The notes beneath the pieces are model-generated. The model saw nothing but the letters and a program-made list of their open reading frames with translations. It made no database searches and was not told the origin of the DNA. A stretch of DNA of 64,000 bases. Source: an uncultured Candidatus Saccharibacteria bacterium (GTDB lineage: Bacteria; Patescibacteriota; Minisyncoccia; Phycocordibacterales; UBA9973). The stretch lies in assembly GCA_964397435.1 (NCBI GenBank), contig CAYNHU010000001.1:209-64208 (forward strand), written 5' to 3'. Of this stretch, positions 307 to 64,000 are shown in pieces. Each line of letters begins with the position of its first letter. Position 1 is the first letter of the stretch. Both the position numbers and the translations under genes were made by a program.

Positions 307-1224
307 CTATTTACCGATTTTTGCAAGCGCTAACTGGATAATATGGTCGATAAACTCAGGGAGAAATACCCCTACCTCAGTAAGCGATCTGTGAATATGT
401 GAATCAGGACTAATTTCAGGATGAGTTCTGAGATTTGTCAAATATATCTGCTTTGGAGTGACAATAAATTCTGCCTGTCCATAATGACGAAGCCCGGATG
501 CTTCGTACAATTCTTTTGCGTGACGTTGTAATATATCTTTCTCCTCTCTCGTTAATCCTCTACCTTGCGGCACAAATGTGTAGAGTGGTTGCTTGCGAAG
601 CTCTTCGGTAACGACAGCTACTGCTGGTTTGCCGTGCACAAATTGCTGTACGTGAATTTCTCCCGGCTTTTCAGATGCCATGCGAAGTCCTTCGAGTAAC
701 TCACCGCGTGTTTTTGCAACGATGTCTGGACTTTGTTTTGATGTGATTACCCATGGTGGTGAAAATTTCAAAAATATTTCTTGCGCATGTTCTTTGAGAT
801 ACACTTCGGGAACGACGGGATTTTGATAGCGATAATCAGGAACAGTGTAATACTGTTGTGTTGCGAGTCCAAGTGTCTGTGCTTTTTCTTTGATGAGCAC
901 TGGATTGTCAGTTAATGCTGAAGCAACTGGGCCTGAGCCGGTATATGGAATACCGAGCGCTTCAAGCTGCGCTTGAAGCGCTCCATCTTCACCATACACA
1001 CCATGCAGTGCATTCCACACGACATCAACACTTTCTTTGAGTTGGTCAGCTGTGATCGGTCGTCCATTGATGTGCCAAACGCCATCTTTGGTAATGAGAA
1101 TATCAATCGGTTTGTATGAGAGTGGAAAATGATCACGTAGTGACTGCAAAATCGTCGCTCCAGTTTCAAGCGACTGATGATATTTATGACTGACACCACC
1201 ACGAACAACACCGACTCTAATCAT
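307..1224 (-). CDS. ddl: D-alanine--D-alanine ligase (ATP-grasp), stand-alone copy
   Basis: 305-aa ORF with typical Ddl N-terminus (MIRVGVV..GG.S.E...SL.TG) and ATP-grasp C-terminal half; third Ddl-like module in this window. Confidence 0.8.
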   Translation of the reverse strand: MIRVGVVRGGVSHKYHQSLETGATILQSLRDHFPLSYKPIDILITKDGVWHINGRPITADQLKESVDVVWNALHGVYGEDGALQAQLEALGIPYTGSGPVASALTDNPVLIKEKAQTLGLATQQYYTVPDYRYQNPVVPEVYLKEHAQEIFLKFSPPWVITSKQSPDIVAKTRGELLEGLRMASEKPGEIHVQQFVHGKPAVAVVTEELRKQPLYTFVPQGRGLTREEKDILQRHAKELYEASGLRHYGQAEFIVTPKQIYLTNLRTHPEISPDSHIHRSLTEVGVFLPEFIDHIIQLALAKIGK

Positions 1225-3857: not shown

Positions 3858-6464
3858 TTACTTACGTAATACTTTTTTGAGATATTTACCAGTATGTGAT
3901 TTTGGATTGTTTGCGACGTCTTCGGGTGTACCGACTGCAACAATTTTTCCACCACCAACGCCACCTTCAGGGCCGATATCAATCAAGTAGTCAGAGCATT
4001 TAATAATGTCCATGTTGTGCTCAATCAATACAACGGTGTTGCCTTTTTGAACGAGCAACTGGAGCACGTCGAGCAATTTTGCAACGTCATCATAGTGCAA
4101 TCCAACAGTTGGCTCATCAAGCAAGTAAATTGTTTTTTCAAGATGTGGTCGGTAGAGTTCTGAACTGATTTTGACACGTTGCGCTTCTCCACCCGAAAGT
4201 GTTGTCGCACTTTGTCCAAGTTCGAGATATGCAAGTCCTACATCACCGAGCGTTTGCAATCGATCGTGAATCGCAGGAATATCTTCGAAGAACGTAAGCG
4301 CTTCTTCGACAGTCATGCGGAGAATTTCGTAAATGTTCTTTTTCTTGTATTTAACTGCGAGTGTTTCTTTGTCGAATCGTTTGCCGGCACAGACATCACA
4401 GGTAACGTACACCGTTGGCAAGAAGTGCATTTCAACAGCAATTTCGCCATTACCTTCACACGCTTCACAGCGACCGCCTTTGACGTTAAATGAGAAACGG
4501 TTTGATTTCCATCCACGCAAGCGAGCTTCTTCGGTTGCGGCAAACAAATCACGAATATGTGTCCACGCGCCAGTGTAGGTTGCGATGTTTGAACGTGGTG
4601 TACGGCCGATTGGAGATTGGTCGATCAAAATAGCACGTGAGATGTATTCTGTCCCAGTAAATGACGCGCAGTTATATCGCTCCGCTGAACGGTAGCGACG
4701 GTCGAGTTTGGCAGCAAGATTTTTGTGCAAAATCTCGTACATAAATGAACTTTTTCCAGAACCAGACACACCTGTGATTGTCACCATGCGTCCAAGTGGA
4801 ACTTCAACATTCATGTCTTTGATATTGAATACATTACCGTTAACGATTTTGATACTTCCCTTGTCTTTGGTGCGACGTTCGTCAGGAACTTCAATTTTGG
4901 TTTCTTCGCGGAGGTATGCAAGTGTACGTGAACCACTGTCATTTTTCTTTGCAGACAAGAGATGGTCAAGGAATCCTGAAACAATAACGTTACCACCGTG
5001 CACGCCGGCTTTTGGTCCGATATCAACGATATAGTCCGATGCGTAGATTGTGTCTTCATCGTGCTCAACAACCAAAATAGTGTTGCCGAGGTCACGCAAG
5101 TTGAGCAATGTTTCAATCAAGCGTTCATTGTCACGCTGGTGCAAACCAATCGTTGGTTCATCGAGCACGTAGAGTGCGCCCACCAGTCGTGAGCCGAGCT
5201 GTGATGCGAGACGAATACGCTGCGCTTCACCACCTGAGAGTGTATTTGCACGACGATCGAGTGTGAGATATTCGAGACCCACATCAAGCATGAACTGGAG
5301 ACGTGCTTCAATTTCGCGCAATACTGGAACTGAAATTTCTTTATCTTTTGGAGAAAGTTTGAGGTTTGTAATGAAGTGCTGCGCATCAGCGATCGAGAGT
5401 GACGCAAAGCGAACAACGTTGATGCGAGTTTTTTGATCGTTTCCGATAAACACATTGAGCGCTTCAACACGAAGACGCTTACCCTGACAACCATCACATG
5501 GTTCATCGCCAAAGAAATGCTTCGTGCCAAGTCCATTACACACAGCACATGCACCATATGGTGAGTTGAATGAGAACAAACGTGGTTCAATTTCTGGAAA
5601 TGAGAAACCATCGTTCGGACATGCGAATTTCGCTGAAAGCAAAAATTCTTCTTGTCCATCAAACTGAATCGTTACCAAACCATCAGCTTCGAGCAATGCG
5701 CGCTCAACTGCTTCTGAGAGGCGCTGACGGCTGCCGTCTTTGTCTGCCTTGAATTCATGCACAGCAAATTCATCAACGAGCACATCGATGTTGTGTGCTT
5801 TGTTTTTTGAGAGCACAATTTGTTCACGAAGATTTTTCATCGCGCCATCGAGACGGATTGAAACGAAACCTTTGCCGAGTAAATCGTAGAGCATCTGGTA
5901 GTGCTCGCCTTTTCGTCCGCGAATAATCGGTGCGAAAATGTGCACTTTGGTATCATTCCACTCAACACCCATGACTGACTTTTTCTTGCCGCCCTCTTTC
6001 ATGAAGCCATTCACTTTTTCAATGATGAAGTTAACGATTTCTTCGTTCGAGAGTTTTTTGATTTCTGTACCACAATCAGGACAAATTGGTTTACCAATAC
6101 GAGCATAGAGCACGCGGAGATAGTCGTAAATTTCGGTAATGGTTGCTACCGTTGAACGTGGGTTATTTGAACGAGACTTCTGATCGATTGAGATTGCCGG
6201 TGACAAACCAGTAATTTCATCAACATCTGGTTTTGGCATTTGGTTCAAAAATTGTCGGGCGTACGCCGAAAGTGACTCAACGTAGCGACGCTGGCCTTCT
6301 GCGAAAATAGTGTCGAATGCAAGTGATGATTTACCTGAACCAGACATACCGGTTACCACAATCATTTTATTGCGTGGCATTTCAACATCTATGTTTTTCA
6401 AGTTATGGGTTCGAGCCCCCTTAACAATGATCGAATCCTGATTTTTATTTTCTTTATGTGGCAT
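3858..6464 (-). CDS. uvrA: Excinuclease ABC subunit A
   Basis: Two ABC ATPase modules ([23 protein letters not shown]), zinc-finger cysteines, LSGGEAQR signatures; start taken at MPHKENK (M40 of the longest ORF). Confidence 0.92.
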
Positions 6465-43651: not shown

Positions 43652-46012
43652 TTAAAATCCTGTTGCGTTAATAATTGTTTCAAGTAATTCAAGTGGGTAG
43701 AGCGGTTTTGATTCTGCCAGTCCTTGGTGATACAGCACTGTTGACGGAGTAAGTCCGGGGAGCGTGTTAATTTCAATAACCGATATATTCCCTGTTCGTA
43801 ATTCAAGAAATGCGTCAATACGAGCATACCCGCGAATTCCGATCCGAGTAGCAACTTCGGTAATCAACTCCTGTGTTCGCGCAAGTACTTTTGGTTTTAT
43901 CAGTGAACGTGGTGGTGGCGTAATATTGACTCCCGTACCACCTTGAAATTTTTCTTCAACAGACAACACTGAACCTTCAGCAACAGTGATACTTGGCGCA
44001 AGTGCTCGAAGCGACGAACCGCGACGCTCAAGCACTCCGACAGTGACTTCAATCCAACCACTTTTGCGAACATGTTTGAGGGTATTACTTCGCATGCGAA
44101 TGACATCAGTGACAACATATGCTTCGAGTAATAATTCTTCAACACCATGCTGCGGCATTTCAACTTGTTCAAATTGCTGCGGAAATACACCTTTTGGTAT
44201 GTACGGTGCCTTGGTGTGAATGTACTCAACATACGTAGCCAAATCACGAGCGGATGTTAGCTGCACAATACCTGTCGAGCAACCATCACCACGCGGTTTG
44301 ACAATCAACGTTGGACTACCAATGCGCTCGGTATATGTGTTCCACTGTTTTTCATAATCAGTTGTATGTGAAAATGTTGCGTACTTTACTACCAGATGTT
44401 CAGGAACATTCACGCCAGCGATTTCAAATGCTTTAATTGTTTCATTGGTCTTCCATTTATCCATGCAAAGCGCAGATACTTCAGCGTTTGAGCCGTTGTA
44501 ACGCACCGCATGTGTAGTAAACAACTTTTGTAACGTACCATCCTCACCAATACCACCGTGGAGTGCAATAAACACAAATGGATTCCGTTTCGCAAATGTT
44601 TCAAGGTCATACCGCTCAGGAATAAAAAAGGATTCGGATGTATCACCAGCTTGTAATGCTAATTTGTGCTGCACTCGATCAGTTAACTCACGTAAACGTG
44701 TTATATGCTGCTCGGCTCGTTCAGCATTTGCGATAACTTCTTCGACGGTGTGATTTAGCACAAGCGCGTATGGAATTTTCCAGACGGAATGTTTGGTATC
44801 AAGAACATAGATAGTGGGTTTGTAGCGTTTTGACCGTCGCAATTTTAACCACACGTTTGTACCACTCATGAGAGAAACTTGGCGCTCTGCAGTTCCCCCG
44901 CCGCACAACACCGCAACAGGTTTTCGATCAGCAACTATTGGTTCTGGTTGGAGCAGCGGGAAGCCATGTCGGCGACACGCGTTATTGATGACATATCGAA
45001 GCACATCACGATGCGAGAAACCAATACGCGCCGCTTGCTGAAACAGAAAACTATTTTGTTCCATTCCTGAAATCGGATTAAAATCAGAAAACCAAATGTT
45101 TCCATCCGGAAGCACCCATCCATCAAAACGCGCAAAGTCACGCATGCCAAGCACGCTCCACAACTGCTCAGCTTGGATTTGAATTTTTTCAATAATCTCA
45201 TTTGAAAAACGAGGTGGGCAGTGATATGCAACTTGTCGTGTAGGTAAATATTTTTTACGAAAATCAAATACCTGATGTTCACTGTAATCAGCCTCAATTT
45301 CAGTTGGCATAATTGCTACACCTTGCCCAAACCGATTCTCAAGCAAAATAACTGTAAACTCGGTGCCCGTTGCGAATGGTTCAATGACAACACGAGTATC
45401 CATTCGTTTTGAGAAAATATACTGCGCGCGTTCGAGTGCTTCTTCGACGGTTGCTACAGAAAAAACACCGATGCTCGAACCACCAGTTGCTGGCTTAACT
45501 ATCGCTCGAGTAATGGCATGCTTTTTGAAAAATGCTTGCACGAGTTTTTTATGATCACGTCCATAAATTTTGAGTGCGAGTGATGGTAGTGTAAAAAAAC
45601 CGTGTTCAGCGATATATTCATTTGCTTTGTGCTTATCAAACACGCGTTTGCCCGCAATCTCTGGCGAGCCAACATGCGGGATATTATGTTTCGCAAGAAA
45701 TGCTTGGATGGTGCCATCTTCACCAAACGCTCCATGCATTGCAGGAAATACCAGTGTAACTTTTTTAAGTAGTGCGATGAGTGCACGTTCAGAAAGCGGC
45801 TTTCCTGTTTCAGCTAATTTAAAATCAAAATCAGATGGCGTGTTTGAATACAGCTGCGCCGGCGAAATCTGAAATGCTCGACGCTTTTGATCGAAATAAA
45901 TAGGAATAATCTCAACATCATCGCTGCGAACGTGATCGAGTACTGAACGTGCTGAGTTAAGTGAGATACCACGCTCAAGCGATGGACCGCCACAGAGGAC
46001 TGCAATTTTCAT
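43652..46012 (-). CDS. ddl: Tandem fusion of two D-alanine--D-alanine ligase (ATP-grasp) modules in one 786-aa polypeptide
   Basis: Module 1 (MKIAVLCGGPS...) and module 2 (KPVAVLCGGGTAERQVSL...) each contain full Ddl N, central and ATP-grasp C domains; 3-nt gap to alr. Confidence 0.8.
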   Translation of the reverse strand: MKIAVLCGGPSLERGISLNSARSVLDHVRSDDVEIIPIYFDQKRRAFQISPAQLYSNTPSDFDFKLAETGKPLSERALIALLKKVTLVFPAMHGAFGEDGTIQAFLAKHNIPHVGSPEIAGKRVFDKHKANEYIAEHGFFTLPSLALKIYGRDHKKLVQAFFKKHAITRAIVKPATGGSSIGVFSVATVEEALERAQYIFSKRMDTRVVIEPFATGTEFTVILLENRFGQGVAIMPTEIEADYSEHQVFDFRKKYLPTRQVAYHCPPRFSNEIIEKIQIQAEQLWSVLGMRDFARFDGWVLPDGNIWFSDFNPISGMEQNSFLFQQAARIGFSHRDVLRYVINNACRRHGFPLLQPEPIVADRKPVAVLCGGGTAERQVSLMSGTNVWLKLRRSKRYKPTIYVLDTKHSVWKIPYALVLNHTVEEVIANAERAEQHITRLRELTDRVQHKLALQAGDTSESFFIPERYDLETFAKRNPFVFIALHGGIGEDGTLQKLFTTHAVRYNGSNAEVSALCMDKWKTNETIKAFEIAGVNVPEHLVVKYATFSHTTDYEKQWNTYTERIGSPTLIVKPRGDGCSTGIVQLTSARDLATYVEYIHTKAPYIPKGVFPQQFEQVEMPQHGVEELLLEAYVVTDVIRMRSNTLKHVRKSGWIEVTVGVLERRGSSLRALAPSITVAEGSVLSVEEKFQGGTGVNITPPPRSLIKPKVLARTQELITEVATRIGIRGYARIDAFLELRTGNISVIEINTLPGLTPSTVLYHQGLAESKPLYPLELLETIINATGF

Positions 46013-57607: not shown

Positions 57608-58057
57608 ATGGCACACAGAAAAGGGAAAGTTCAAATCACCTGGAATGCCAATTTTGCCTATGTGCTTGGTATTATTGCTGCTGATGGAAATCTTTCTCCT
57701 GACGGCAGGCATATCAATATCACATCAAAAGATTACGAACTGGTTTTAAAATGCAAAAAATCTCTCGGTTTAAAAAATAAAATCGGCCGCAAGGCACGAG
57801 GAGGATCAATAAATAAAAAATATTCTGTTCTTCAATTTGGTGATATTGTTTTCTATAATTTTCTGATCAAGATTAGTTTTACTCCAAATAAATCACGTAC
57901 ACTCTCAAAAATACAACTGCCTCAACAATATTTCAGAGATTTTTTACGTGGATGTATTGATGGCGATGGAAGTATTAGTATTTCCAGACATCCTGAAAGT
58001 AATCATGATCAATATAAGATACGTCTTTGCTCAGGTAGCAGAAAATTTTTAGTTTGA
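57608..58057 (+). CDS. LAGLIDADG-family homing endonuclease, two-motif monomeric type, apparently truncated by an in-frame TGA (frame stays open to 58252)
   Basis: Motif 1 LGIIAADGNL and motif 2 LRGCIDGDGSIS; after TGA at 58055 the same frame continues for 64 codons into tRNA-Leu(UAG); AT-rich. Confidence 0.65.
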   Translation: MAHRKGKVQITWNANFAYVLGIIAADGNLSPDGRHINITSKDYELVLKCKKSLGLKNKIGRKARGGSINKKYSVLQFGDIVFYNFLIKISFTPNKSRTLSKIQLPQQYFRDFLRGCIDGDGSISISRHPESNHDQYKIRLCSGSRKFLV

Positions 58058-58237
58058 GTATTACAACAATGCAGAGAGATGTGTTCACCTATTAAAGGTT
58101 CAATACACCCACAAAATCAATCAAATATACATATACTCGTATTTGCCAAACATGATAGTGTAAAAATGTTACGTTGGATATATCATGAAAATGTGGTATG
58201 TTTATCAAGGAAAAAGAACGTAGCAGACAGAATTTTA

Positions 58238-58321
58238 GGGCAAGTGGCGTAATTGGTAGCCGCACTGCGCTTAGGACGCAGCGAGAGTAATCTCATGGGA
58301 GTTCGAGTCTCCCCTTGCCCA
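58238..58321 (+). tRNA. tRNA-Leu (anticodon UAG)
   Basis: Cloverleaf by eye: anticodon loop CTTAGGA, long variable arm; 84 nt. Confidence 0.85.
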
Positions 58322-58530: not shown

Positions 58531-60216
58531 CTACTTTTTCTTTTTTTTACTCAATATCGCTGTTGCGATCTGAGTAATAGTAGCAAGTGTGTTCGGGTCA
58601 AGACCCTTAACATCAAAGTTCTCTTTCGAAATATCAAGCCAGATTCTAGCTCGTTTTTCTACCTCAGCCTCATTAAGACCAGGGAAAGAACGCTTAATTA
58701 CATCCTTAACCTGTGTTAACTCTGACTGGAGCGCCATCGCATCCTTCAGCTTACCAACAAATAAAGGTTGGCTCATTGAAGAAAAGACATACAGTTTTAC
58801 ACCGATTGTTGCAAGAGCACCCCTCACAATCTTATCTACCTCATTACATAAAGCAAATGATTCCTGATCATCAGGATCGTTTTTGTCCACATCCGGTAAA
58901 TTTCTTTTAACAATCGTTAGGGCTTCGTCTAAGCTCTTTTTTCTAGCTACAATACCAATTGCCTTGTAGTACTCGTTACGAATCATCTCGTTGAAATCCT
59001 CAGTTTTTGCACCTGGGAATCTCATAATCCAGTCAACGTTAGTATCCATAGGATACACCAAGAATTCAAACTCTCTAATTCTAATAAAGGTGTTGCCTTT
59101 AAACATGAAAGTTACTTTTTCTGGGTCGTTAGATGGATTAAGTTTCTCTTTCCGCTTATCTAAGTTTACATCTGGGTTACCACCTTGCGAATCAGGTATA
59201 CCTAAAATGTAGAACCATGGCATTACCCAACCTTCACCTTGGTGAAATTGTGCTACTTGTGCTTGACTGAATCTTGATAGAATCAGTTTAATCACATGCG
59301 GATCAACACTCACACCACCTAAGTAGATTAAGTAAGTAAAGAAAGCGAAACTCATAAACGGTATGAGGGCATACAAAGCATCTGTACCATCATTTACTGA
59401 CAAGGTTCTAAGTGTAACAAACATTGTCGCTAACGATAGTACTAGTACAAACAGAAACCCGTAGTTAAAACCATTGTTGTCTGTAGCGTGATCATGATCA
59501 TGGCCATTGTGGTGACCACTACCATGATGTCCATCATGGTCATCATGACCGTCTTTTACCCCAAATCTAGCTTTCACTAGAAACTTAGGAGAAAATTTTA
59601 CGAGCAAGGCAACAATGATCAGGAATACCATTACAGTTACCACTGTGAACGTTATCCAGCTCAAAATACGGCTTGTTGGATTATCACTGCTCTGAGTTGC
59701 GTCAGTGATAAAACCAGTTGTGCCTGCTTCAAGTGCAGGGTTAGAAAAATCAATCGAACAACCATCATAGGTAGAACACCTGCCGAAACCAATCGTAACT
59801 GGTTTGGTGCCGGTATTTGTAAAAAGTACAAATTCTGTTCCATAACGAAGATCGCTATTCCCTTTGTCGTCAACAGCCGTTAAGCCATCTTCTCCATTTG
59901 GGAAATCGTATGGGTAGTACTCTTTCGGGTTATCGTTTGCTTTAAACGTCACACCGGGTATAAGAGTGTAGTAATGGTACTGACCAACTGACATTTCAGT
60001 TGGTAAGTATACTTCTGCATCTTCTGACACAAGAGTACCTCGGCCAATAACCGTGTGCATTATTACTTTTTTCTCACCACCGAAAATCATCCAAGCTGCT
60101 ATCAGTAAAAATACGATAAAGATAACTGCTGTGATTGTGGTGTAAAAAGAAGAATGTTTAGTAGTGTCTCCACCACCATGTCCGTGGTCGTCATGACCTT
60201 CTGCGTGTGCGCTCAT
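58531..60216 (-). CDS. His-rich polytopic membrane protein (4 TM) with large extracytoplasmic and cytoplasmic domains; unknown function
   Basis: 561 aa; His/Asp-rich tracts at N-terminus (HAEGHDDHGHGGG) and in a loop (GHDDHDGHHGSGHHNGHDHDH), suggesting metal binding. Confidence 0.55.
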   Translation of the reverse strand: MSAHAEGHDDHGHGGGDTTKHSSFYTTITAVIFIVFLLIAAWMIFGGEKKVIMHTVIGRGTLVSEDAEVYLPTEMSVGQYHYYTLIPGVTFKANDNPKEYYPYDFPNGEDGLTAVDDKGNSDLRYGTEFVLFTNTGTKPVTIGFGRCSTYDGCSIDFSNPALEAGTTGFITDATQSSDNPTSRILSWITFTVVTVMVFLIIVALLVKFSPKFLVKARFGVKDGHDDHDGHHGSGHHNGHDHDHATDNNGFNYGFLFVLVLSLATMFVTLRTLSVNDGTDALYALIPFMSFAFFTYLIYLGGVSVDPHVIKLILSRFSQAQVAQFHQGEGWVMPWFYILGIPDSQGGNPDVNLDKRKEKLNPSNDPEKVTFMFKGNTFIRIREFEFLVYPMDTNVDWIMRFPGAKTEDFNEMIRNEYYKAIGIVARKKSLDEALTIVKRNLPDVDKNDPDDQESFALCNEVDKIVRGALATIGVKLYVFSSMSQPLFVGKLKDAMALQSELTQVKDVIKRSFPGLNEAEVEKRARIWLDISKENFDVKGLDPNTLATITQIATAILSKKKKK

Positions 60217-60391
60217 TGTTTATTTATTGTTTTTAAGTTACTGGGCATAAAATGTACCCATTAGTACTATTATATCAGATTTTAGTGCTTTAGTCAAGGG
60301 CAAGAGAGGCTTGGTATATAAGGGTAAAAATACAAAAGCGCCCCGCATAGCGGGGCGCTTTTTAAGCTCTATAAACCTCACTACTGAGAGT

Positions 60392-60718
60392 TTATTGAGG
60401 AAGTACGATAGGTGTTCCTGGTGGGCCTTGAATCCCGAATGTATTGATGATTAATCGCATAATGCCAAAGACTGACACCATAATCAATAAACCAACCAAA
60501 CCCCAGAAAATATGTCGCTTACCGTCCATGACCGCCTTTTCTTCCCCACCACCTTGATTCATGAGAAATTCAACAATTCCCCAAATGAACACAAGGAGTG
60601 CGAGTGCCATCATAAATACGATAATCGGATTTATGATTTGTGTACCGAGACGATAAATCAATGTATCGATCGTTACAGCATGCGCGATATGAGTACTGGT
60701 AAACCACCATCCAAACAT
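60392..60718 (-). CDS. Pilin-like two-helix membrane protein, paralog 1 (minimal form)
   Basis: 108 aa; hydrophobic helix, GGGEEKAVMDGKRH loop, hydrophobic helix. Confidence 0.5.
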   Translation of the reverse strand: MFGWWFTSTHIAHAVTIDTLIYRLGTQIINPIIVFMMALALLVFIWGIVEFLMNQGGGEEKAVMDGKRHIFWGLVGLLIMVSVFGIMRLIINTFGIQGPPGTPIVLPQ

Positions 60719-60723
60719 ATAAA

Positions 60724-61104
60724 TTATTGACAGCCAGGTGTAAGAGGATCGTTGTCGATCACACAGGGGATCTGACTTGAGTTAAGTGTACCGCCACCAA
60801 CACCGAAGAGTGTCTGGAGAGCAGCTACGAGACCCCAGATTGAGAGGATCACAAAGAGACCAATAACACCGTAGAAAATAGCGTTCTTTGCTTTTGCACG
60901 CTCTTCTTCGTTTGTTTTTGTAACGAAACTGATGATTGCCCATGCGATGTAAAGGAAACCGAGGGTAATCAAAACTGGCATCAAGTAACTAAGCACTTTC
61001 TGCAAGATGTTCAAGAGCGCAAACAACTGTGTTGCGTCCTGAGCGAAAGCAACAAATGGTGTAAACGCAAGTGCGATCAATCCTGCTTTTTTCAAATTCT
61101 TCAT
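60724..61104 (-). CDS. Pilin-like secreted protein, paralog 2 (signal peptide + two-helix module, VirB2/TrbC-like topology)
   Basis: 126 aa; signal peptide, helix, TKTNEEERAKAKNA loop, helix, Gly-rich tail. Confidence 0.55.
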   Translation of the reverse strand: MKNLKKAGLIALAFTPFVAFAQDATQLFALLNILQKVLSYLMPVLITLGFLYIAWAIISFVTKTNEEERAKAKNAIFYGVIGLFVILSIWGLVAALQTLFGVGGGTLNSSQIPCVIDNDPLTPGCQ

Positions 61105-61198
61105 ACTATGAATTACTAAAAACTAATAATGTGACCTTATACCTATACACCTAGTATACCATAAGCAACTCCCCTGTATGCAAGTGAGTTACCCACAT

Positions 61199-61831
61199 TT
61201 AGATGCCGAACAACATTCGCATTGCACCAACAATACCCCAAACAGAAAGCATCACGAACAGTGCGAGCACGCCCCAAAGCATAATCTGTTTGGACTTCTT
61301 GCGTTCCTCAACTGAATCAGCAGAAAGTACATACTGAACTACTCCCCAGGTGAAATAGAGTGACGCAAAACTAATCGCAATCGTAATCAAAAAATTATTA
61401 ATGACACACGTTGCGACAATAAAAATATCTCGGAATGTTTTAATACTCACCTTACAGGTAGCAGCCTGAGAAACAGCTGACTGGTTGGTTGCCTTGCCTG
61501 CATTATACAAACCAGTGTTTACATCTGTGTATGATTGGTTTGGATTAAAAATGTCTTTGTTGATTGTATTGTTTGAAGCATTGGCTGCATCTTTTGCACT
61601 TGTATTTGCTGACTGTGCTTGTGTGTTAATCCACTGGTTGTAGATAGAACCACTTGGCAATGAACTGTTAGTTGAACTCGCATTCCACTGAATGTTCTGA
61701 TTGTCAGCAGCACCTTGAGAATATGAACTATCGTAATTTGTTGCCGGTGTTGTTTGAGCAAACACACTCAATGGCAAAAACACACTGAGGGCAATCACAC
61801 TTATGAAACTAATGATTACTTTTGTACGCAT
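61199..61831 (-). CDS. Pilin-like secreted protein, paralog 3, with Asn/Gln/Ser/Thr-rich N-terminal extension
   Basis: 210 aa; signal peptide, low-complexity N/Q/S/T region, C-terminal helix-SADSVEERKKSKQ-helix module. Confidence 0.55.
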   Translation of the reverse strand: MRTKVIISFISVIALSVFLPLSVFAQTTPATNYDSSYSQGAADNQNIQWNASSTNSSLPSGSIYNQWINTQAQSANTSAKDAANASNNTINKDIFNPNQSYTDVNTGLYNAGKATNQSAVSQAATCKVSIKTFRDIFIVATCVINNFLITIAISFASLYFTWGVVQYVLSADSVEERKKSKQIMLWGVLALFVMLSVWGIVGAMRMLFGI

Positions 61832-61839
61832 GGGAAATA

Positions 61840-62244
61840 TTAGGCCATGAACGCCTCAATCGTTGCTTTAATAACTGTTGCAATCATCCACGCTCCAAGC
61901 AATACGCCAGCACCAATGAGTGTGTAGAGCAGTCGTGTTTTTGCTTTTTCAAGTTTCTCACTATTACCGCGAGCGAGCACGAACATCAAACCTGCATAAA
62001 TGATAAAGGCAGCAACGATTGGAATTGCGACTTTAAGAATGATACCAAGCAGTTTAGCAATAAATGATGAGAAATCTGAGACGTTAATTGGGTTCTGAAT
62101 TTTACCAACAGCCTGTGTAGCGGTTGTTTGAGGAGTAGCCGGACCAGCTGATTGACCACCCGCTGCATAGACAAGAGAAACTGGAACGAGCATAACTGCG
62201 AACATTCCCAAACTAACAATGAGTGATGCAAAATATGTTTTCAT
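61840..62244 (-). CDS. Pilin-like secreted protein, paralog 4
   Basis: 134 aa; signal peptide, helix-ARGNSEKLEKAKTR-helix. Confidence 0.55.
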   Translation of the reverse strand: MKTYFASLIVSLGMFAVMLVPVSLVYAAGGQSAGPATPQTTATQAVGKIQNPINVSDFSSFIAKLLGIILKVAIPIVAAFIIYAGLMFVLARGNSEKLEKAKTRLLYTLIGAGVLLGAWMIATVIKATIEAFMA

Positions 62245-62248
62245 ATTA

Positions 62249-63496
62249 TTATAAGAAACTACTATACGCTCCCCCGACGCCGAAGGCAGCTAAAATTGTT
62301 TTGATAATTAAGACCGCCATAAGGATAAATATAAAGCCGATCGCAACGTTGATAAAGATACCTTTCGCTTTTGCACGAGCTTCTTCACTTGCGCCGTTAG
62401 TCAAATACAAGAAACCAGCATACGCAAAGAGTGCTGCAGCAATCGGTACTGTTGCGTAAATCAACCATGTGAGTGCTTTGTTAAACATTGTCATGAGCTC
62501 ATTCCATCCGCAACGAGAAAGCGAAAGTCGTCCGTCGCACGGAACGAGTCCGCCTGACATATCAGGTGATGTATTCTTGGCTACTTTTGATGATACTGGT
62601 ACGAGTGGTTGTGTTGGGGTTGTTGGGGTTATTGGCGTAGTTGGAGTTGTAGACGCACCAAACATACCGGTAACATACTCGTTGCCTTCCTCATCAATCA
62701 AACGATAGCTGATTGTTTTTGGGTCGATAGTAAAACTCTGACTATCAACGACAAATCCCTGTGTTGTTGGGAGTGTATAGGTAAGTGTCTGTGGTGCGGT
62801 TGCTCCAACAGATCGAGTACCAAAGTTTGGGACTTCACCAGAGAAAAAGATACTCGCATGATACGTAAGTACAAAGTCTGCATCATGTCCTGATGCGGGA
62901 GTGTCGTAAATTGTGAATGTGACTGTCAGACCATCGCTACTTACGGATGGAACAACAGTGAGACCATTAACAACGCCTGCGCCATATGTCGGTGATGTTG
63001 GTGTTGTGGGCGTGGTTGGAGTTGTTGGTGTAGTTGGAGTTGTTGACGGAACAACAAACGTACCAGTGTGATATACCTTGCCGAGTGCAACGTCACGGAT
63101 TTCGTATGTGTAGTTTGTACCTGCAGCCATTCCTGTGTATGGAACTTCAATAGTAACTTCTGTTTTTTTGTTTGCCGGTGTGTTTGCGGCTCGTGTTCCA
63201 ATACCAGACACAGTATGAACATCTGCCACATCGCCTGTTGGCCACCAGACACCAATGAAATCAATTTTTGCATCAGTAGCTCCTGTCGCCCAAAAACTTT
63301 GAATGAATGTTGTATCTGCTTGTCCAGGATACTGATTAGCAATATCAGTTGTCGGATCAACGACAACGGTATTTACGTTCTGTGCCCACACTGGAATCGA
63401 ACCAAAAAGTGCAGTGAGTATAAGTATGCCAAGTACAACAATAATCGATAGGTATCGAGTAATGTGTGTGCTGTGATTGCATAAGTATGTTTTCAT
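62249..63496 (-). CDS. Pilin-like secreted protein, paralog 5, with two Ig-like extracellular domains joined by (TPTTP)n linkers
   Basis: 415 aa; signal anchor, two homologous beta-rich domains each followed by TPTTPTTP repeats, C-terminal helix-TNGASEEARAKAKG-helix module. Confidence 0.55.
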   Translation of the reverse strand: MKTYLCNHSTHITRYLSIIVVLGILILTALFGSIPVWAQNVNTVVVDPTTDIANQYPGQADTTFIQSFWATGATDAKIDFIGVWWPTGDVADVHTVSGIGTRAANTPANKKTEVTIEVPYTGMAAGTNYTYEIRDVALGKVYHTGTFVVPSTTPTTPTTPTTPTTPTSPTYGAGVVNGLTVVPSVSSDGLTVTFTIYDTPASGHDADFVLTYHASIFFSGEVPNFGTRSVGATAPQTLTYTLPTTQGFVVDSQSFTIDPKTISYRLIDEEGNEYVTGMFGASTTPTTPITPTTPTQPLVPVSSKVAKNTSPDMSGGLVPCDGRLSLSRCGWNELMTMFNKALTWLIYATVPIAAALFAYAGFLYLTNGASEEARAKAKGIFINVAIGFIFILMAVLIIKTILAAFGVGGAYSSFL

Positions 63497-63539: not shown

Positions 63540-64000
63540 TTATTTACCAAAAATGACCGAGAATTTACTCTGGGCATTACCAACCGCTTCGACAATTGTA
63601 GCTGCTCCACGAACAACATCATCAACCATTCCATTAAAAATACGGTTCGTATCATCCATACCCGGGTCATACCATCCACGAGCGATGATTGCTGACTGGT
63701 ATAAAACTGGCGCAATACTTGTTTGTGGGACCTGACTCAACAAATCGCGACGAGCTGGCGCAACTGGAGCAGCGGTGTTCAACCCTTCAACAACTTTTTT
63801 AGCAAAATCAGCACCTGTTAAATCAGAAGCAACATACATTGCGGTTGAGAGGTTTCGACTCGCTTTAATAACAGCAAGCGCCTGTGTTTTACCAAATGTA
63901 ATCTGTGTGCCTGTCGTAGTTGCTTGCGGAACTTTTGCAATATCAAAGTTAAGGTTTGGGTTTTGCGCAACAATTGACGGCAATTCACTTGCATACCCAA
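63540..64000 (-). CDS. Hypothetical protein, 5'-partial (ORF open to window edge)
   Basis: Frame stays open upstream of the TTG at 63983 to the end of the window. Confidence 0.35.
   Translation of the reverse strand, partial: GYASELPSIVAQNPNLNFDIAKVPQATTTGTQITFGKTQALAVIKASRNLSTAMYVASDLTGADFAKKVVEGLNTAAPVAPARRDLLSQVPQTSIAPVLYQSAIIARGWYDPGMDDTNRIFNGMVDDVVRGAATIVEAVGNAQSKFSVIFGK

Follow-up and report, generated by a model that had tools for sequence, protein, structure and literature searches.

Five anciently diverged VirB2/TrbC-like genes form one chromosomal operon in the DNA analysed here, a 64-kb window from an uncultured Candidatus Saccharibacteria bacterium (assembly GCA_964397435.1, contig CAYNHU010000001.1), in which they occupy positions 63496 to 60392 of the minus strand as consecutive open reading frames (ORFs). 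This tandem array is a new instance of the VirB2-like pilin arrays described in Patescibacteria, where a search of 3,035 genomes with the Pfam families PF18895 and PF04956 yielded 441 'VirB2 arrays' (Quinonero-Coronel et al. 2025, PMC12102498). On balance, the encoded proteins are probably type IV secretion system (T4SS)-type pilin subunits, belonging to PF18895, some of them with adhesive domains. Patescibacteria account for much of bacterial diversity and are host-attached, and to the problem of how they draw on their hosts the locus adds a testable anatomy, namely a fixed, position-specific five-member operon away from virB4 in Paceibacteria.

Membership of the family is carried by profile searches. 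PF18895 (T4SS_pilin, curated gathering cutoff 26.6 bits) covers the C-terminal 60–70 residues of all five proteins, with E-values of 1e-7, 1.4e-7, 1.1e-6, 1.1e-11 and 3.3e-4 for the products of 415, 134, 210, 126 and 108 aa, respectively. Four of the five exceed the cutoff, the 126-aa protein being the best match (45.0 bits). The 108-aa protein falls below it (21.1 bits), and some of its orthologs are also weak PF18895 matches; a profile of its family (34 orthologs), aligned by hhalign with the family of the 126-aa protein, gives a probability of 99.2% and an E-value of 1.6e-19, and through this comparison the 108-aa protein is a predicted member of PF18895. The NCBIfam model NF045849 ('Mbov_0395 family pilin-like conjugal transfer protein') also matches all five proteins, at 19–37.5 bits against a curated cutoff of 40, and hydropathy profiles show two transmembrane (TM) segments in every C-terminal module. 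Among the members of 21 related arrays, PF18895 is matched by 107 of 107 and the TrbC/VirB2 family PF04956 by 26 of 107 (E ≤ 0.01, best 3.3e-7). In a tblastn search of 72,556 plasmids, the best match (E 0.02) is a TIGR03745/DUF2976 membrane protein encoded inside a conjugation cluster together with TraD and a conjugative transfer ATPase, and hhalign relates the array family to this protein at 79%. An earlier sequence-only reading of the window had proposed that the five proteins share a C-terminal helix, loop and helix with a VirB2/TrbC-type topology; the module is real, well beyond chance, the likeness stands, with PF18895 in or next to all five, and the quoted charged loops are found verbatim in five of five translations. 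The accompanying statement that no canonical family is recognisable is contradicted by the curated Pfam family and by the published arrays (PMC12102498, PMC10633639, PMC12857230). It is scarcely credible that the proteins belong instead to an unrelated small two-TM class, such as holins, bacteriocin immunity proteins or toxin–antitoxin membrane peptides: small size, two TM helices and a charged loop would suit such a class, but no holin or immunity family is returned for the array proteins by Pfam or NCBIfam, the signal peptides and sizeable ectodomains would be out of place in it, and the neighbourhood is housekeeping in character and syntenic within the clade, with no phage or bacteriocin context. 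A holin or immunity identity is thus effectively refuted by the profile searches.

Transcription of the array proceeds from high to low coordinates, and 'paralog 5' of the sequence-only reading is the first gene transcribed. ORF calling confirms five adjacent genes on the same strand, the minus strand, encoding 108–415 aa, with junctions of 4, 8, 94 and 5 nt in transcription order, and a search of the whole window with a hidden Markov model (HMM) of the module retrieves only these five ORFs. Position 1 (62249..63496, 415 aa, PF18895 32.4 bits) begins with a signal peptide (about residues 9–39), followed by a fibronectin type III (FnIII)/immunoglobulin (Ig)-like domain (residues 45–148, nt 63364–63053), a TP linker, a second FnIII/Ig-like domain (residues 174–278, nt 62977–62663), a disordered TP/P-rich linker, a conserved C-D-G...C motif (C320, C329) and the PF18895 hairpin, made up of helices 331–366 and 371–404 (nt 62506–62285). 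Position 2 (61840..62244, 134 aa, 31.9 bits) has a signal peptide, about 30 mature residues and the hairpin at residues 61–125. In position 3 (61199..61831, 210 aa, 29.1 bits) the signal peptide leads into a region of about 100 residues rich in N/Q/S/T, which account for 53% of residues 26–125, then a Cys pair and the hairpin (residues 146–203). The penultimate gene, position 4 (60724..61104, 126 aa), encodes a signal peptide, the hairpin (residues 32–95) and a tail with a conserved Cys pair, and the last, position 5 (60392..60718, 108 aa), a very short leader, a conserved I-N-P motif and the hairpin. An intrinsic-terminator-like hairpin on the same strand (60334..60362; 13-bp stem with nine G-C pairs, T tail) closes the transcription unit.

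The four signal peptides proposed earlier are supported: Sec-type leaders can be read in four of the proteins, where a basic n-region and a hydrophobic core precede an A/V-x-A site (VWA/Q, VYA/A, VFA/Q and AFA/Q), and the leader of the 108-aa protein comprises 14 residues only, ending in IAHA. No class III leader or G/FTLxE motif is present at the five N-termini, the hydrophobic module being C-terminal, and the five sequences contain no LPXTG motif, nor does any sortase family match within the window. A Gly-rich tail had been ascribed to every paralog; a Gly-containing tail is found in three of the five, the 126-, 415- and 108-aa proteins, and is lacking in the other two. Likewise, the N/Q/S/T-rich stretch of the 210-aa protein and the two Ig-like domains of the 415-aa protein hold as described, but the 134-aa protein is not bare ahead of its module, as had been thought. 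Just beyond the hairpin are conserved pairs of Cys residues (C320/C329 of the 415-aa family, one pair within the 210-aa protein and one in the tail of 126-aa family members), which fits a topology with both termini outside and the charged loop in the cytoplasm. Structures were also predicted by AlphaFold2 (AF2). For the 415-aa protein, run with ten orthologs, the model begins with a leader helix, continues with two beta-sandwich domains (block pLDDT about 74–89) and, besides linkers of low confidence, contains the hairpin, and Foldseek matches the sandwich pair to FnIII/Ig tandems in the PDB (EpoR, sDscam FNIII, RbmA) at E of about 1e-6, which bears out the Ig-like assignment. In the 126-aa protein, helices are predicted at residues 24–62 and 66–100 (block pLDDT about 65–88).

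Related arrays were found at 52 loci in a scan of GTDB species genomes, and they show the operon to be old and stable. With the module HMM, which we built ourselves, four to six array genes are counted in nearly all untruncated loci, five being the commonest number. The gene sizes in relatives, 412/133/163/125/108, 404/222/327/126/108 and 141/247/150/123/105 aa, follow the same order within the same flanks. Positional orthologs share 49–78% identity, compared with 18–39% between paralogs (22–39% in pairwise local alignments within the window array); by position, the 134-aa protein has an ortholog at 65%, the 210-aa protein one at 49% that is only 163 aa long, and the 108-aa protein, the most conserved member, one at 78%. 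Across 41 arrays, cross-genome best matches fall at the gene's own position in 91% of comparisons for the last gene, in 84% for the penultimate gene, and in 56% and 51% for positions -4 and -5. From this positional orthology it follows that the paralogs are old and position-specific rather than recently diversifying. The related arrays come from metagenome-assembled genomes labelled Taylor-, Nomura- and Ryanbacteria, Paceibacterota and, in one submitter's series, 'uncultured Ca. Saccharibacteria'; Table S1 of PMC12102498 lists three relatives with this operon under the GTDB class Paceibacteria, with VirB4 present. The organism is most likely a bacterium of the Patescibacteria (candidate phyla radiation, CPR), class Paceibacteria; the class is assigned from these three relatives and is uncertain, given the many related titles that name Saccharibacteria.

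The sequence-only reading had suggested a diversifying surface-filament or adhesin locus, and in its strong form this would be a rapidly diversifying, antigenically variable adhesin, in which recombination and slippage at TP-encoding repeats alter copy number and linker length. We consider this improbable. Several observations do point that way, among them the low identity between paralogs, the varying sizes of positions 1–3 (415/134/210 aa in the window, and those given above for its relatives), the faster evolution of the ectodomains than of the module (41–58% versus 64–75% identity) and the analogy with antigenic variation in Bartonella and Anaplasma that has been proposed for the Patescibacteria VirB2 arrays (PMC12102498). 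However, each position has its own ortholog, the last two genes keep their places, and five genes are usual across deep divergence, the range among arrays judged complete being four to six. The DNA itself is also stable. Over 5.45 kb, from the gene of a neighbouring 561-aa protein to the window-internal part of an upstream solute-binding protein (SBP) gene, the window does not differ from a contig of a second sample (L001), and a contig from a third sample (L002) matches the window over the array and the SBP part. TP-encoding repeats are indeed present on the minus strand, though imperfect: a 9/18-bp tandem repeat in the TPTTP linker between the beta-sandwich domains (62987..63045; period 9, 6.6 copies and 76% matches in Tandem Repeats Finder, TRF) and a 9-bp repeat in the second TP linker (62612..62650; 4.3 copies, 80% matches). 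TRF matches across the 9-bp repeats are 76–87%, the order of synonymous codons is scrambled, and exact tandem tracts reach no more than 7 nt in the former and 19 nt in the latter. Given these short tracts, the identity of the DNA in three samples and the lack of the TP linker in most orthologs of the 415-aa protein, slippage is unlikely.

The operon appears to be divided by an internal promoter. The only long gap within the array (61105..61198, minus strand, 94 nt) contains a putative extended -10 element, TGgTATACT, at 61161-61153 (TATACT at 61158-61153, TG at 61161-61160), followed by an AT-rich leader without a Shine-Dalgarno sequence; a DnaA-box-like 9-mer, TTACCCACA, lies inverted, on the plus strand, at 61189-61197, 30 nt upstream of the -10. 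The same arrangement recurs in relatives: the junctions of 40 arrays have medians of 1–8 nt except for the one ahead of the penultimate gene, where the median is 88 nt, and this gap carries an extended -10 of the form TGnTAYAAT. A T[CT]C[AC]CA box, often ATATCCACA and resembling the DnaA box TTATCCACA, is located 28–32 nt upstream of the -10 in 23 of 40 loci, as against 0.24% of random segments, and the leaders, which are AT-rich and have no Shine-Dalgarno sequence, contain recurrent ATTATTAG and AGGTCG motifs. A nearby replication origin does not account for the DnaA-box-like motif, as there is no clear skew switch and box-like 9-mers number 14 in the window against about 14 expected. From the internal promoter we infer that the 126- and 108-aa genes would have the stronger transcription and that most of the subunits would be their products.

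The first part of the operon is coupled to a gene for a membrane-anchored SBP of the SBP_bac_1/SBP_bac_8 families, whose 3' part lies at 63540..64000 on the minus strand, runs past the window and ends 43 nt before position 1. The upstream flank was read from the two Logan contigs that carry the identical locus, L001 and L002, and from the relatives L005 and L008. In L001 the full SBP gene (4978-6300) encodes 440 aa (Pfam E 3e-23) with a single N-terminal TM segment at residues 1–34, and its likeness to MalE-type carbohydrate SBPs is distant only. Of the 46 related loci with an upstream gene called, 42 have a same-strand gene of this family (about 430 aa) immediately upstream, with SBP–array gaps of -53 to +48 nt in most loci, often -4 to +5, and outliers of 117 and 171 nt. 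Just outside the window, a class-I S-adenosylmethionine (SAM) methyltransferase of 175 aa (Methyltransf_11/25, UbiE/ArsM-like; L001:4447-4974) precedes the SBP gene, as it does in 41 related loci, often with a 4-nt overlap, and GyrA is encoded farther upstream in 35. At one locus (L053:7311-8996) there is no separate SBP gene and the first array gene encodes a 561-aa fusion of SBP and module, comprising an N-terminal anchor, SBP_bac_1 at residues 62–345, a C-D-G...C motif like that of the 415-aa family and the PF18895 hairpin at residues 486–540. The fusion has no internal leader, hence its topology is consistent, and this natural fusion supports a physical link between SBP and pilin. Solute- or substrate-binding proteins and ABC transporters go unmentioned in PMC12102498 and PMC10633639, and our literature search found no paper linking an SBP with VirB2-like pilin arrays. 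The SBP coupling, the internal promoter and the fusions of PF18895 to ectodomains are not mentioned in the published array accounts consulted and provide a new context for the family.

It is conceivable, though very improbable, that the operon is an SBP-dependent uptake system, in which a channel or translocator made of the five hairpins (10 TM helices) would take a carbohydrate-like ligand from the SBP. In its favour, the SBP is closely tied to the array and once fused to it, the set of subunits seems fixed, the annotated neighbours of the array include no permease or ATPase gene of an ABC importer, the only ABC gene seen nearby, in L011, being an exporter-type fusion of ABC_membrane and ABC_tran, and Patescibacteria must import most of their building blocks (PMC11665869). 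However, the operon lacks an energising component, profile searches return no similarity to transporter families above noise, the short hairpins with their charged loop do not look like known permeases, and the large ectodomains of positions 1–3 have no obvious use in a channel.

Several results weigh against the view that the array encodes T4SS pilins. The sequence-only reading had suggested that the partner machinery may lie just past the window edge; this edge is the upstream side and holds the SBP, the methyltransferase, GyrA and a metallo-beta-lactamase-fold (Lactamase_B_3) protein. No VirB4, VirD4, VirB6 or TrsD is encoded in about 60 kb downstream, in 6.3 kb upstream or in 10 kb upstream in a relative, virB4 in particular being absent from about 55 called genes downstream and five upstream, and no T4SS component was found within about 7–10 kb in the 52 related loci, where conserved neighbours and large ORFs were sampled by Pfam. 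PF04956 does not match the five window proteins at E ≤ 1. Searches of the PDB with one sequence and two profiles returned noise only and no VirB2, TraA, TrwL or other solved pilin, and fold searches with the AF2 hairpin retrieved generic alpha-hairpins, which are non-specific; the link to VirB2 therefore rests on profiles and topology and not on structure comparison. A pilus in monoderm Patescibacteria has so far been raised only as a possibility, in a 2025 review, none having been seen yet (PMC12857230). Finally, PF18895 occurs in a range of fusions: to SLT lytic transglycosylase domains, which are VirB1-like (P0012, P0014, P0017 and P0019), to PF16656 (P0011 and P0013) and, in a 1,485-aa protein (L063:4316-8773), N-terminally to six PKD domains. 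Some PF18895 proteins carry two or three modules per chain, three being present in L063:2215-3303 and L022:4092-5210 (362 and 372 aa). Such fusions to enzymes and binding domains, and the multi-module chains, fit a membrane anchor at least as well as a homopolymeric pilus with tight packing.

These observations lend weight to a T4SS-independent surface-display or membrane-scaffold complex, a serious contender that we nevertheless hold to be somewhat unlikely. Here, the PF18895 hairpin would be a generic two-TM anchor without any pilus, and the five paralogs a fixed heteromeric complex holding the SBP and the FnIII-like and N/Q/S/T-rich ectodomains at a monoderm cell surface without sortase or lipoprotein anchoring. 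The distance of the array from any virB4, the fusions of the module to unrelated ectodomains (SBP in L053, six PKD domains in L063, SLT and PF16656), the chains with two or three modules and the co-operonic SBP all suit it, and conserved gene order with position-specific orthology is typical of hetero-oligomeric complexes. Moreover, in the part of Table S3 of PMC12102498 that was consulted, separate PF18895 genes are given beside virB4, with at least one Paceibacteria genome among the entries, and the T4SS may thus own another pilin. On the other side stand the family-level likeness to TrbC/VirB2 and to pilin-like proteins of integrative and conjugative elements (ICEs). F-type pilins, too, accept fusions at their termini, on the outer face of the filament. 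In Southlakia epibionticum, furthermore, a homologous array is located inside the T4SS cluster and is essential with it (PMC10633639, PMC12857230).

A comparison with the published arrays places the window array among them in some respects and apart in others. In S. epibionticum, the one genetically tractable species, the pilin genes that form a series within the T4SS cluster have been shown to be essential (Wang et al. 2023, PMC10633639), while a 2024 perspective describes the role of the T4SS as 'completely unknown' (PMC11665869). The array of S. epibionticum strain ML1 (SEML1_0006-0019) resembles the window array in that both consist of tandem same-strand PF18895 paralogs on the chromosome of a monoderm CPR bacterium. 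Gene numbers are also similar, with five in the window array, six in ML1 and 2–11 in the survey, as is the low within-array identity of about 25%. In that survey, arrays were described as pilin genes in tandem or with one non-pilin gene between them, with a mean within-array identity of 25% and a maximum of 54% (PMC12102498). The window array falls under this tandem, low-identity definition but lies away from virB4, whereas arrays 'near virB4' are defined in the legend of Fig. S9 (ring 5) as within +/-20 coding sequences, and every VirB2 detected by PF18895 in the consulted part of Table S3 is flagged as virB4-proximal (PMC12102498). Arrays distant from virB4 may therefore be uncatalogued in that part of the table. 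Whereas the ML1 array is situated inside a T4SS cluster, the window array has no T4SS gene in its surveyed flanks, and it further differs from ML1 and from the survey description in its coupling to SBP_bac_1, its internal promoter and its class-wide, position-specific orthology.

More distant systems show a similar mixture. VirB2/TrbC/TraA pilins of Gram-negative T4SS (PF04956) have in common with the array proteins a leader, two hydrophobic helices, a short basic loop and a mature core of about 70–80 residues; in contrast to them, the window proteins belong to a monoderm host, include large N-terminal ectodomains and are not encoded next to virB3/virB4, and five fixed paralogs take the place of one major pilin plus VirB5. 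The sub-threshold matches to NF045849, from Mycoplasma ICEs, and the match to TIGR03745/DUF2976, from ICE and mating-pair formation (MPF) modules, run along the whole hairpin, and NF045849 shows that such proteins also occur in elements of monoderm type (Mollicutes). However, these proteins are single-copy and encoded in mobile conjugation modules, whereas the window array is chromosomal and in a housekeeping context. In Bartonella and Anaplasma, divergent virB2 genes are likewise amplified in tandem, but inside the T4SS locus and, it is thought, for antigenic variation, whereas the window paralogs are ancient, position-specific and stable. The pseudopilin and minor-pilin operons of type II secretion systems (T2SS) and type IV pili (GspG-K; FimU-PilVWXE) offer a functional analogy only: they contain about five divergent paralogs in conserved order, of which one or two are abundant subunits and the accessory ones prime or cap the fibre, but their fold and signal are unrelated and other assembly machinery is used.

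Weighing these lines together, we hypothesize that the T4SS-type pilins would work as follows. Four of the proteins would enter the membrane through cleavable Sec-type leaders, the last with its very short one, and each would insert as a two-helix hairpin, with the N-terminus and the C-terminal tail predicted to lie outside and the short EE-x-R/K-K loop in the cytoplasm. By analogy with VirB2/TraA and with S. epibionticum, the hairpins could be extracted from the membrane by a VirB4-powered T4SS whose genes lie elsewhere in the genome, and built into a surface filament or conduit where the bacterium touches its host cell; both polymerisation and dependence on a T4SS are assumed in this scheme. 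The 126- and 108-aa products, which are small, best conserved and served by their own extended -10 promoter, are candidate bulk subunits, the 126-aa product being the candidate major subunit. Positions 1–3, presumably co-transcribed with the upstream SBP, may be accessory subunits that display variable ectodomains, that is, the two FnIII-like domains, a short extension and the N/Q/S/T-rich region, and these may act in adhesion or ligand capture, as VirB5 and minor pilins do elsewhere. The membrane-anchored carbohydrate-type SBP would belong to the same functional unit as the array.

We also put forward, tentatively and as rather unlikely, a broader proposal in which the array is a distinct class-wide organelle operon of Paceibacteria and more than a T4SS pilin set. 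VirB2-like hairpins would here have been co-opted as the scaffold of a filament or membrane raft that presents the SBP and adhesive domains to the host, so as to capture nutrients or sense the host, and its genes would stand apart from the virB4 cluster. The operon would then be laid out as methyltransferase, SBP, three ectodomain subunits, the internal promoter with its DnaA-box-like site and two core subunits, and the virB4 cluster may keep a pilin of its own. Should the link to the SBP prove functional, it would favour ligand capture at the interface with the host over export of DNA or effectors, and the SBP would be a concrete protein for ligand screening.

The remaining surroundings of the array are of a housekeeping type. 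In the 6.3 kb upstream in L001, going away from the array, the SBP and methyltransferase genes are followed by GyrA and the Lactamase_B_3 protein, which together with the methyltransferase are also the conserved neighbours in related loci, and in relatives the flank continues with an S1-domain protein, SpoU, Pth, signal peptidase I and HisRS. Downstream of the array, the gene content of the window includes IF-2, a class-V aminotransferase, ClpB, Ddl, Alr, penicillin-binding proteins, a Mur ligase and MraW, as well as LysRS, SerRS, TopA, RelA/SpoT, ParB, UvrA, UvrC and ten tRNA genes. On the downstream side, the neighbour in related loci is usually convergent and varies between loci. In six related loci, e.g. 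L054:16626-17762, a PilT/PilB-type T2SSE ATPase (378 aa) is encoded about 6 kb downstream of the array; it is probably a component of type IV pili that is present by synteny only.

In the window, the downstream neighbour is the 561-aa His-rich multi-TM protein (58531..60216, minus strand), which has its own terminator (58505-58478) and a near-consensus promoter at 60297-60269 (TTGACT-17-TATAAT with an upstream TG). The protein has a His-rich N-terminus and loop (HDDHGHGGG, HDDHDGHHGSGHHNGHDHDH), about 4–5 TM segments and a soluble C-terminal domain of about 240 residues; it belongs to no Pfam or NCBIfam family and matches seven of 1.84 billion cluster representatives. Among related loci, its gene occupies this place in L014 and L015 alone, the two closest relatives, and is absent from it in L009, L011 and most others. 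A role as a VirB6-like partner was considered and rejected in view of the separate promoter and terminator, the lack of a family, the seven matches and the absence from most loci. The protein probably stands outside the array system, and a metal-related function is our guess.

Some further features of the window were noted. A LAGLIDADG homing-endonuclease ORF of 214 codons with both LAGLIDADG motifs (57608-58252, plus strand) lies between tRNA-Leu(taa) and tRNA-Leu(tag), its 3' end overlapping the second tRNA by 15 nt, and has one in-frame TGA at codon 150 (58055-58057). TGA is strongly avoided as a stop in the window: among 63 greedy ORFs, 38 end in TAA, 20 in TAG and five in TGA, and none of the 32 longest annotated genes uses TGA. 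Taken together, the in-frame TGA and the rarity of TGA as a genomic stop suggest that the LAGLIDADG ORF is either a pseudogene or derived from a donor that reads TGA as sense; genome-wide recoding of TGA was rejected, as five of the 63 ORFs do terminate with it. A 786-aa ORF (43652-46012, minus strand) has D-Ala-D-Ala ligase domains in its first 340 or so residues, with two matched stretches per Ddl domain, and only a sub-threshold YceG match beyond them, and at the opposite end of the window the match of a 305-aa ORF (307-1224, minus strand) is confined to the final 40 positions of the N-terminal Ddl domain.

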